Shown in pieces: positions 47,501 through 50,500 of a DNA stretch of 64,000 bases. The DNA lies in the NCBI RefSeq assembly GCF_011045215.1, contig NZ_CP049202.1. One strand, 5' to 3'. Origin of the DNA: Escherichia coli (GTDB lineage Bacteria > Pseudomonadota > Gammaproteobacteria > Enterobacterales > Enterobacteriaceae). The position numbers are program-made. Position 1 is the stretch's first letter; each line of letters starts with the position of its first letter.

Positions 47501-50500
47501 GATAAAAAATGTTGACACACTCATTGAGTTACTCCGAATTTCTGTATACATATTTCAAGCCAGAATAAACCGTAATGTCATGTGTTACGGGTATGACTCA
47601 TCATTTATAGCGATAAATACAAGAATGTCTATTCTGTAGGTTCCACCTTCCCCTGATTTGCAAGCGTCGATTTTTGTGATGTTCATCAGGGGAAAGAGCC
47701 TATGGAAAAACGGCAATACCGCGACTTTTCTGGGGAGTGATCTTTTACTTACATGTTCTGTCCGGTTTATCCCCCGATTCTGTGGATAACCAGTCTGCTG
47801 TTATGTGAGAACCGCCACCGCTCGCCGTAGCCCCAGCGACCAAACGTAGTGAGCGAGTGAGCGAGGAAGCGGAATGTCTACCCCCCCTGAATTGAGTACT
47901 TACGCGCCGGGCTTCCTTCCGCTCATGACCTGATACGCCCTGTCAGACTTGTCTGCTACCAGAGACGCTTACGTGTCAGCACCAGTGATATAAGACGTAA
48001 TGGTCAAAGATCGTGGCGTTGGCACTGTACTGTTCCTCAGCCATCTCATATAGCCGTTCGCACATCGTGGCGTTAACATCATCGGCATCCAGCTTTTCGA
48101 GCAACGGCAGGCACTGGCTTTTTATCAGACATTACCGGATATCAGACCTTCGTTTTATCTTTGCAGACAAGAAACCATTGTCTGGATAATCTTTCGTTAT
48201 TTTCGTCGTAATCCACCAGACCGGCTTCATACAAAAAAGTCATACAGATACAACACTGACGTACAGATATATTCAGTCCGCACGCCATATCAATAACACG
48301 AAACATGACTTCACCATATTTATCCTCCCGTAATTTCATCCAGAGGAGCAGCGATTTACAGTCATCATAAAATAATGCGGTACTGTCCCTGCGTTTCATG
48401 GAGTTGTCACACATAGATAACCTCCTGCGTATGTGGAAATAACATACACACTGCAACAAATATTCCATAAATATTTATATATTAAATTGTATTACCATAA
48501 CCCCGACATAATTTCTTTTTTGTACACCTGCAGACCTCCCTCATCCGGAGGATAATACCCCACACAGATATATTATCATGATATAAATCCTGTTATGGTG
48601 ATTATTATATTATAACCACATCCGCCAGACTGTATTTTTCAGATTCAGAATTGATTTTCACCGGAAAAAACTTTTCCGCTTTTCCCCCCTCTGTGGCGAT
48701 CAGACTGAATTACCGGGTGGGGTCATGGTACACCTGCCAGCATGTTCCATGCTTCTTTCAGATGCAGCCTGACATCACCCCGTTTTGACCTCCCGAAAAA
48801 ACACTTTGCTACTTATATCCCCCGGACACTGTTGTTATTCCTTCTACCACGACTGGCACGCCAACCCATCACGTTACGCAAGTAAGGCTTACTCACCCTC
48901 TTTACTCAGTCCTAACCAGCATACCCGAAGTCGATGTCAGTACCGCCATACTTATGTGAGTACAATGTCGAGTGTGATCGAACCCTTAGTGACTCCCTTT
49001 GGCATCAATTCTGGTGTAACCCGCATTGTCATAACAGGGTCTTTACCAACGTCCAGTAGGAAAATATTCTGGTTCGTCTGAGTCCCCCCACTGATAGTTA
49101 TGGCACTGTCCGGAAGGTTGTTTAACCGATATGTTACACGCAGGCTTCCCGTTCCAGTGGCACGCATGAGTTCTACTTGTCGTTTGAGTGATGTGTCCAT
49201 GGTGATTGAGTCTGGATATGTTATTGTCACTGCAGGTGTCGTGGTATACTGCCCACTAAGATGGGCCCAATCACACTCTTCAGGATAGCCATTTGCTATT
49301 GCATATGGTCCCCCCTTGCGTCCGATTTTTAGACCGTTGGGAGGGTTGTAGATCCCGACAGCTGCAGTATATGCTGGTGCAAAGTTGCTTATTAGCTTGC
49401 CCTGAAAGTGAAATTGGTGAAGACCTTCTGATAGAGACACAGGCATATATAAGGTACGTTGGGAAATCCCATATTTATCAGTAGCTCCTGTTTGCCAACC
49501 TGGGACTATTTGTCCGTTTATTGTACCCTCGAACCTCCAGTCCTGGTCGCGCCAGTGATACATGTCAGTATCCACACACCACTGAAGCCCCTGCCCGCCC
49601 CCGCCCGCCAGTTGCGACGGTCCGAGATATAGATAGCCATTATATACCCCCCCTAGTGGTACGATGATATCTATTACGCTGTCGAATGCGAATGTGCGAA
49701 TCCCGTAGCTTAGCGTGACGGTTCCCGCTAATAGTTCCGCTGGCAGAGTTAACAAAAGGCATGCGATTGTACATTGTTTCAGGTTTCGTAATTGCATATT
49801 GAAATCTCAGTTATAGTCCTGTGTGTTATCCGTTAGCGCGGGTTCGTAGTAGAGCACTCGTGTTTATCTGACAGCCTGAAAAATAGTACACTCTCCGGAT
49901 ATCAGGCTGTCACACCTGGTCACTGATTGACGGGGTGTTTCTCAATTGCCTATGGCGACCTACAGGTTCCTCAGGGATAAACAACACCAAACGTCAGCGT
50001 GGTACTTATCGGTCCCCCTACAGTCGACGCCAGGATTTGGGTCACTGGTGTCAACGAGCAACTGTTCTTCACCGTATCTGAGGCTATTCCCGTGCAGAAT
50101 GGCGTCGGCGTGTCTCCTGAATTTATAGCTATCGGGGCCATACTGCCATCCGCCAGTGTCAGCCACAGATTGCCACTGGACTCCGTCGGGTTATCCACTC
50201 TGTACAGACCAACTTTATTACCGTATGCCTGATGCATCCCTGCAGGACGCAGGGTGAGTGCTGTATTCACCACAGCGTTATTTTCACAGGTCACCACGGC
50301 CTGAAAGGACGGGTGTGTCTGCCTCTGCCCCTTTAGCAAAACCGCCTGAAAGGTATACGTATTACCACTTAATATGGATGCGCCCTCAAACCCCACCTTA
50401 CAGGTGTTCGGCTGGTTTATGATGGTTATCGGGATGGTGATGGTTGTACTACCAGCAGCGATCACATCACATACTGGCAAAAGACTGCAGGCCAGCATCA

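Follow-up and report, generated by a model that had tools for sequence, protein, structure and literature searches.

A putative orphan winged-helix gene on a duplicated patch beside a Pef-like fimbrial operon with a GATC-free promoter region in Escherichia coli

The fimbrial locus described here lies on a stretch of Escherichia coli plasmid DNA of 64,000 nucleotides (contig NZ_CP049202.1 of RefSeq assembly GCF_011045215.1), which is referred to as the window and whose first letter is position 1. It consists of a chaperone-usher operon resembling the pef operon of Salmonella, and of a small open reading frame (ORF) of 90 amino acids (aa) that follows the operon and appears to be a very distant relative of the PapI/PefI/FaeA regulators. 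An original prediction, made from the window alone, had regarded this ORF as the PapI-like regulator of the fimbrial locus, and had proposed that the locus may not use classical Dam/Lrp phase variation. We found that the small ORF sits on a patch of about 650 bp with sharp ends, whose counterpart belongs to a non-fimbrial gene module elsewhere in the window, and that the regulatory region of the operon is devoid of GATC sites. These observations suggest that recombination has brought an orphan regulator-like gene to lie beside a fimbrial operon that lacks a Dam/Lrp switch.

The fimbrial operon and its relatives

The PefC/AfrB usher, the PapD-type chaperone, the PefA-like subunit and the pef gene order assign the operon to the Pef/AF-R1 type (Table 1). 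Because the major subunit scores below the equivalog cutoff of the PefA model, the operon is Pef-like and not Pef itself, and its closest characterised relative is Salmonella pef. The annotated pef locus (pSLT) reads pefB-pefA-pefC-pefD-orf5 (185 aa)-orf6 (291 aa), followed after 431 bp by pefI, with all genes on the same strand. The window repeats this layout gene for gene, including a small winged-helix-type ORF a few hundred base pairs downstream (537 versus 431 bp), and the promoter region is AT-rich with T-tracts in both. The loci differ in several respects: GATCs 102 and 114 bp apart lie upstream of pefB and none in the window operon, PefI is a bona fide PF04703 member whereas the 90-aa ORF is not, the latter came on a patch with the remnant of a barrel gene, and the pefI-srgD-srgA-srgB-rck-srgC genes after pefI are absent from the window locus. 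The Orf6-like gene, which encodes a putative tip protein or adhesin, is intact in the window and called in other assemblies, and is unannotated in the RefSeq record of the related C5 plasmid.

In the pap, sfa and foc operons the PapI-type gene is divergent from papB (PMC12388093). A distal gene on the same strand had therefore been singled out as unusual in the original prediction, but this is exactly the arrangement of pefI in Salmonella, and the rule of the divergent PapI gene does not hold for pef. A further distal PapI-type gene is the canonical FaeA/PapI-family gene of 71 aa seen in public contigs (5501-5736 in L002, L003, L005 and L007), which closes a pap-like operon, is read in the same direction and immediately precedes the shf-like module described below. 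Pix fimbriae have a PapB-type regulator, no PapI and a truncated regulatory region (PMC12388093); similarly, a PapB-family gene heads the window operon, a canonical PapI gene is lacking and the regulatory region is shortened by mobile-element debris, but the usher (PefC/AfrB) belongs to a different fimbrial clade, and the window locus has a Rob/AraC-type regulator and another PapB-like gene in its vicinity. In the Pef/F18-related operon of the ETEC4064 plasmid (PefC/AfrB usher, FedE-like subunit), AraC-family and PapB-like genes are located directly upstream and there is no PapI-like gene.

The small ORF begins 6 nt after an AGGAGG (48421-48426), a strong Shine-Dalgarno sequence that is also kept in the other copy, and lies 537 bp downstream of the last fimbrial gene on the same strand. 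In RefSeq it is named a hypothetical protein (WP_061358403), the record being that of plasmid B of the bovine E. coli C5, to which a 7.5-kb stretch of the window is 99.8% identical; this stretch is present in 1 of 5426 complete E. coli genomes. The exact 90-aa protein was found in 330 index blocks of public assemblies, and the ORF is intact in both copies and in hundreds of assemblies. Its neighbours are constant in 23 contigs, in the order PapB, major subunit, usher, chaperone, 186-aa protein, (282-aa protein), ORF and Rop. The other copy, hereafter copy 1, shares 81% aa identity with it (tblastn), and the ratio of nonsynonymous to synonymous substitution rates (dN/dS) between the two is 0.51, on 26 differences, which is compatible with a functional but fast-evolving small protein. 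With its AGGAGG, its recurrence in 330 blocks and this ratio, the ORF looks like a real gene. One assembly, GCA_014105865.1, has the 83-aa paralogue twice, on contigs of 1.32 Mb and 130 kb, in addition to the 90-aa copy beside the fimbrial operon, so the two types co-occur and cross-talk between them could happen.

Table 1. Features of the fimbrial locus, the duplicated patch and the module of copy 1 in the window
Feature	Position	Strand	Remarks
Pef-like chaperone-usher operon	48952-54765	minus	From ORFs and RefSeq names of the 99.8% identical C5 plasmid
PapB-like regulator, first gene	54511-54750/54765	minus	Probable ATG 54750; PF03333, E 2.1e-24
PefA-like major subunit	53805-54353	minus	PefA NCBIfam E 5.5e-25, below equivalog cutoff (88.5 vs 227 bits)
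PefC/AfrB usher	51231-53657	minus	58.5% identical to Salmonella PefC
PapD-type chaperone	50528-51238	minus	Operon gene
Orf5-like 186-aa protein	49971-50531	minus	Operon gene
Orf6-like 281-aa protein	48952-49797	minus	30% identical to pef Orf6
Regulatory region upstream of PapB-like gene	54766-55126	minus	~29-33% GC, T-tract-rich, GATC-free, bounded by IS2
Small ORF copy 2	48142-48414 (stop included)	minus	90 aa, MCDNSMKRRD...; orphan, putatively winged-helix-like, remote PapI/PefI/FaeA relative
Whole duplicated patch	48125-48777		Both ends sharp; barrel-gene 3' end, intergenic region and small ORF
Intergenic/leader region of patch	48415-48664	minus	Homologous to region upstream of copy 1
Barrel-gene remnant	48665-48782	minus	Frameshifted last ~48 codons of the 315-aa gene intact at 3078-4022
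Junction spacer, last fimbrial gene to patch	48783-48951		Includes 59-bp ISEc20-like (IS110-family) piece, 48888-48946
Truncated rop (ColE1 Rop family)	47976-48128	minus	5'-truncated, adjoins patch; RefSeq 'Rop family', Pfam PF01815
Small ORF copy 1	2629-2877	minus	83 aa
shf-like (polysaccharide deacetylase)	6164-6994	minus	Module of copy 1
capU-like (GT4 glycosyltransferase)	5057-6160	minus	Module of copy 1
virK-like (DUF535)	4034-4975	minus	Module of copy 1
315-aa barrel gene, intact	3078-4022	minus	Module of copy 1
DUF4056 gene	1388-2533	minus	Module of copy 1
IS2 (IS3 family)	55127-56279 (end of transposase ORFs)	minus	Terminal repeat TGGATTTGCCCCTA from 55127; adjoins regulatory region
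Second PapB-like gene	58872-59138/59204	minus	PF03333, E 1.6e-25
Rob/AraC-family regulator	59396-60241	minus	NCBIfam RobA-like

A duplicated patch from a non-fimbrial module

The patch that carries the small ORF matches positions 2587-3216 of the window with 79.2% nucleotide identity over 665 columns (blastn), and its homology to public loci with the paralogue (L003, L004) ends at identical, sharp breakpoints. Besides the ORF it retains the 3' end of a barrel gene, for which tblastn returned two high-scoring segment pairs in different frames (residues 268-285 and 285-307 of the 315-aa protein), and a 5-bp deletion is visible in the alignment with the public paralogue loci. A signal peptide and a C-terminal ...SGEYRF mark the intact 315-aa protein, and because outer-membrane beta-barrels have such a ...YRF signature we take it to be one of them. 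The duplication and the barrel remnant are clearly more than chance, which bears out the earlier observation that a second copy of the small gene lies directly downstream of the operon together with a piece of a barrel gene. That the ORF is part of the fimbrial locus, as was also supposed, did not hold up: the sharp breakpoints place it on a 650-bp patch from an shf/capU/virK-like module and, because of them, we infer that mosaic recombination brought it there and that it did not descend together with the operon.

Upstream of the small ORF, copy 2 has a specific 35-bp insertion (48535-48569) that forms a CCTCC...GGAGG hairpin. The sole sigma-70-like match in a promoter scan of this region is weak (48579-48552) and takes its -10-like hexamer from the insertion, through which a new promoter could have arisen. 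From the last fimbrial gene to the small ORF, the minus strand has no predicted intrinsic terminator. The ISEc20-like scrap in the junction spacer is 84.7% identical over its 59 bp, and on the other side the truncated rop begins 13 bp past the small ORF and its translation lacks the Rop N-terminus. Together with the ColE1 remnant, these surroundings are typical mosaic plasmid DNA. The remnant (~47650-47874) follows rop, is origin-proximal and matches many small ColE1-like plasmids, and the whole embedded ColE1-type fragment (47650-48128) is adjoined by a yiaY-like Fe-alcohol dehydrogenase gene (46373-47551).

The complete module of copy 1 spans 475-8085 on the minus strand, and includes a 292-aa protein; NCBIfam lacks a model for several of its proteins. 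Ahead of it lie the genes for a Rob-like AraC regulator (7180-8085) and for a YadA-type trimeric autotransporter of 1175 aa (8385-11912). In six public contigs the 83-aa paralogue is found in the same fixed module, which comprises the Shf-like, CapU-like and VirK-like proteins, the 315-aa barrel protein, the 83-aa ORF, the DUF4056 and 292-aa proteins and an AraC-type regulator. The module has either a YadA-type adhesin gene beside it, as in the window, or a pap-like operon about 4 kb upstream, with a canonical FaeA-family gene in between. The order deacetylase, GT4 glycosyltransferase and DUF535/VirK-like protein upstream of copy 1 is also that of the shf-capU(rfbU)-virK(-msbB2) cluster of enteroaggregative E. 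coli and Shigella virulence plasmids, a presumed likeness that is based on Pfam domains and on the known make-up of the named cluster. The two differ in that the fourth gene of the window encodes the 315-aa barrel protein instead of msbB2, and is followed by the 83-aa ORF, the DUF4056 gene, the 292-aa protein and the AraC regulator.

Regulatory sequences of the operon

The original prediction had reported that the 360 bp upstream of the proximal PapB-like gene lack GATC sites, and this was confirmed over a much wider region, with no GATC in 54766-55126 nor anywhere between 52970 and 55482 (~2.5 kb, including the spacer between the PapB-like and major subunit genes). GATC is likewise absent from the same regulatory sequence in relatives free of the insertion sequence (IS) IS2 (L010, L013 and L016), where the nearest one is found about 690 bp upstream of the PapB-like gene, inside IS21 debris. 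Near the small ORF there is none in 48415-48664; the only one, at 48698, falls within the barrel remnant and has no counterpart in copy 1, the region of which is GATC-free from 1858 to 4798. Pairs of GATCs 95-112 bp apart occur in the window only at about 15.9, 19.2, 44.1 and 55.5 kb, and none of them falls in the fimbrial regulatory region. Allowing two mismatches or fewer, the Lrp consensus has no match in 54354-55126 or 48415-48650; window-wide there are 21 matches against 12 +/- 4, mildly above chance.

A classical pap-type switch has two GATCs about 102-103 bp apart within clusters of Lrp sites, a divergent papI-type gene upstream of papB, and a PapB-family first gene. Only the last of these is present (PF03333); the PapB-like gene is preceded by 360 bp of AT-rich DNA and, beyond that, by IS2 in the window or IS21 debris in the relatives. 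Without GATCs in the regulatory region, a classical Dam/Lrp/PapI methylation switch would be unable to operate at the fimbrial promoter, in agreement with the original proposal. Upstream of Salmonella pefB, GATCs are found at -215, -113 and -101, with spacings of 102 and 114 bp, and Dam/Lrp control of pef is reported to act through this arrangement (Nicholson and Low 2000, cited in PMC6844306).

The missing sites have to be viewed against the composition of the window, which contains 119 GATCs against 244 +/- 16 in dinucleotide-preserving shuffles, all 100 of which had more. At this density a 361-bp stretch free of GATC has a probability of about 0.5, and eight GATC-free gaps in the window exceed 1.5 kb (2.5-kb gaps being counted eight times). 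Since GATC is two-fold depleted window-wide, the gap at the operon is no statistical outlier. The chromosome of E. coli has GATC at close to the expected frequency, and the depletion in the window may reflect restriction avoidance or a foreign origin of the plasmid DNA. Two motifs that resemble GATC boxes without the GATC core, TTTGATTTTTTAT at 54992 and TATGACCTTTTTT at 54878, lie 114 bp apart and are thus spaced like the pef GATCs at 5451 and 5565; MAFFT pairs ATGATCTTTTT in pef with ATGACCTTTTT in the window. As candidates for vestigial pef-type boxes they were set aside, local alignment of the upstream regions being no better than dinucleotide shuffles (z 0.29), and homology is not claimed.

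Both PapB-like genes of the original prediction match PF03333 (E 2e-24 and 1.6e-25). The second is about 4 kb from the first, beyond IS2, an IS110-family element and a toxin-antitoxin pair. Together with the Rob/AraC-type gene it forms a pair that is divergent and about 1.7 kb upstream of the operon in the IS-free relatives, and divergent also in C5, whereas in the window both genes point the same way as the operon. The sequence is interrupted at one and the same base, 55126/55127, by IS2 in the window and by IS21 debris in the relatives. A simple IS2 insertion with target duplication at this point was considered and rejected, as the far side does not continue the sequence of the relatives, and the upstream rearrangement appears to be more complex than that.

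Relationship of the small protein to PapI, PefI and FaeA

Conventional searches do not connect the 90-aa protein to any characterised family. It has no match to FaeA/PapI (PF04703) in a Pfam hmmscan even at E<=10 and none in NCBIfam, a PDB sequence search gave nothing meaningful, and the PHROGs scan gave only matches of E ~0.07-0.09, to a family whose function is unknown. Run against 1.84 billion representatives, phmmer returned the paralogue only, and a word-indexed search of 5.8 billion sequences only the paralogue and a 98% variant; with so few relatives no deep alignment is possible. A search seeded with one FaeA-like protein returned two proteins.

More sensitive comparisons point to a remote relationship. 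BLASTP aligns the small ORF with PefI at 17.7 bits, in register to both C-termini, and PefI and PapI are likewise linked at 17.7 bits in the PDB search. When a three-sequence alignment of the small-ORF family was used as the query, hhalign gave a probability of 72.7% against a 5-sequence PapI/PefI/FaeA alignment and of 85.9% against a 9-sequence one (P 5.2e-6, score 32.8), pairing residues 19-83 of the ORF with PefI 6-70. The control scores were 15.4 for the reversed alignment and 19.1 for the best of 200 column shuffles. In an independent MAFFT alignment of 24 sequences the register was identical, and L61, W80 and L82 were invariant. Furthermore, a 102-sequence PapI-family hidden Markov model (HMM), run over 804 six-frame ORF fragments of the window, ranked copy 1 first (E 0.041) and copy 2 fourth (E 1.4); neither tblastn nor this HMM detected a canonical PapI/FaeA gene in the window.

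Structure prediction allows for a winged helix but does not single out a family. From the three-sequence alignment, AlphaFold2 (AF2) gave a low-confidence model (predicted local distance difference test, pLDDT, 47.7) with helix-helix-helix-hairpin (H-H-H-beta-beta) topology and no significant fold matches in Foldseek. With PapI homologues in the alignment, a winged helix was modelled at pLDDT 80.9, which superimposed on PefI (2JT1) at 2.1 Å and PapI (2HTJ) at 2.3 Å; this model is circular because of those homologues, and ArsR, MarR and Z-alpha domains match it as well as PefI/PapI do (Foldseek).

Calling the small ORF PapI-like, as in the original prediction, is thus weakly true: by family HMM, the comparison that the original prediction had named as a possible refutation, it does not belong to PF04703, while profile-profile comparison suggests remote homology over the whole domain (86% with hhalign). 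The small protein is probably of the winged-helix type and related to PapI/PefI at a great distance, outside the Pfam family. With the PapI/FaeA/PefI proteins (PF04703; 2HTJ, 2JT1) it shares the small size, the predicted H-H-H-beta-beta winged helix, the full-length profile alignment and the conserved L, W and L positions near the C-terminus. It differs in its low identity (13-21%) and the missing Pfam match, in an N-terminal extension of 13-18 residues and a Cys-rich recognition helix (RQCCIC), and in genomic setting, since the main copy is found in a non-fimbrial module and there is no GATC pair near either copy. Copy 2 is located at a chaperone-usher operon with a PapB-type regulator, in the pefI position, by way of the recombined patch, whereas copy 1 and the public homologues are in the non-fimbrial module.

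Origin and role of the small gene

The explanation that we consider somewhat more probable than all others together is a mosaic juxtaposition, in which an orphan winged-helix regulator on a recombinational patch has been brought next to a Pef-like operon that has no Dam/Lrp switch. A patch of about 650 bp would have been copied from part of the non-fimbrial plasmid module that is complete at 1-7 kb of the window, keeping no more than a dead 3' piece of the barrel gene, the intergenic region and the intact small ORF, and would now lie between the end of the operon and the truncated rop. The product of the small ORF would be lineage-restricted, about 83-90 aa long and of winged-helix layout; it would be related to PapI/PefI/FaeA only very distantly, and the position of its gene mimics that of pefI. 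Expression of the fimbriae would be set by the PapB-like protein of the operon, by the Rob/AraC-type regulator and the second PapB-like gene, and by H-NS-type silencing of the T-tract region of 29-33% GC. In Salmonella, PpefB is silenced mainly by H-NS (PMC6844306). By analogy, we expect that activators of the PapB and AraC types relieve such silencing, with no Dam-dependent phase variation. The small protein itself would most likely be a trans-acting DNA- or Lrp-associated winged-helix factor, shared with the module of the paralogue; it may modulate fimbrial expression in trans or serve that module, and any effect on the fimbriae would be Dam-independent.

Several points weigh against this explanation. 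The small ORF occupies exactly the pefI position of the closest characterised operon, a notable coincidence if the juxtaposition is accidental. It has no Pfam, NCBIfam or PDB sequence match, its confident AF2 model is circular, and Foldseek on this model does not separate PefI/PapI from the ArsR, MarR and Z-alpha winged helices. Moreover, a dN/dS of about 0.5 on 26 differences is a weak sign of constraint, and the invariant arrangement across assemblies says little about selection, the copies being near-identical.

An unlikely alternative is that the small ORF serves as the functional PefI equivalent of the operon, as a dedicated, Dam-independent and probably negative co-regulator that is produced by read-through or co-regulation and acts with Lrp or PapB at the AT-rich promoter. 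It has the place, the strand and a similar spacing to pefI (537 versus 431 bp), is always present with the operon, has remote end-to-end similarity to PefI and is separated from the last fimbrial gene by no predicted terminator; in addition, PefI itself is a repressor and not a PapI-like activator (PMC12388093). However, the ORF carries with it a dead barrel piece and its own upstream region, both copied from a non-fimbrial module, and its better-conserved paralogue mostly has no fimbrial genes beside it, or else stands 4 kb from them on the far side of a canonical FaeA gene. The methylation-blocking mechanism of PefI/Lrp would find no GATC, and the related ETEC4064 operon does without such a gene.

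Equally doubtful is the view that the small ORF is not related to PapI, and is either an unrelated small protein with a common winged-helix pattern or a decaying, functionless passenger. This would account for the lack of a FaeA match at E<=10 and of any NCBIfam match, for the single related cluster among 1.84 billion representatives, for the unbiased AF2 model (pLDDT 47.7) with its non-significant fold matches, for the equally good fit of the biased model to ArsR, MarR and Z-alpha, and for the dN/dS of 0.51. It does not sit well with an hhalign score far above the reversed and shuffled controls, over the full length of PefI to the C-terminal W-x-L, with the first rank of copy 1 among 804 ORF fragments under the PapI HMM, or with an ORF that is intact behind a strong Shine-Dalgarno sequence in both copies and in hundreds of assemblies.

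A little less probable again is a broader proposal, in which the 83-90-aa family is an unrecognised, Dam-independent offshoot of PapI/PefI outside the fimbrial switch. Its members would regulate a surface-modification and outer-membrane module of virulence plasmids (shf/capU/virK-like genes, barrel, DUF4056, AraC) in trans, probably with Lrp or another nucleoid protein, and in this plasmid lineage a Pef-like operon that had lost its GATCs would have recruited the second copy to its pefI position. Finally, classical Dam/Lrp phase variation through GATCs that are displaced or lie outside the 360-bp region is very improbable and largely refuted by the sequence, since the PapB-type regulators and the motifs at pef-like spacing of 114 bp, which could be a vestige, are outweighed by the absence of GATC within 2.5 kb around the promoter, by the nearest site of the IS-free relatives being ~690 bp upstream in IS21 debris, by the lack of a canonical PapI/FaeA gene in the window and by an upstream similarity to pefB that is not above shuffles, which leaves the vestige unproven.

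Implications

The result is mostly a clarification, as the arrangement has a precedent in pef and the absence of GATC is unremarkable in GATC-poor DNA. What is new is limited to the putative orphan family of PapI-like winged-helix proteins, which is invisible to Pfam and occurs mainly outside fimbrial operons. For annotation, Dam/Lrp phase variation should not be inferred from PapB-type (or PapI-like) genes alone, and on a mosaic plasmid the fact that a gene adjoins an operon says little about its function. If the small protein is truly a PapI/PefI-type factor that works without GATC, the reach of PapI-like winged-helix co-regulators would extend beyond Dam-dependent fimbrial switches, and a hypothetical protein encoded in hundreds of assemblies of bovine, ovine and human E. 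coli virulence plasmids would gain a name and a testable role.

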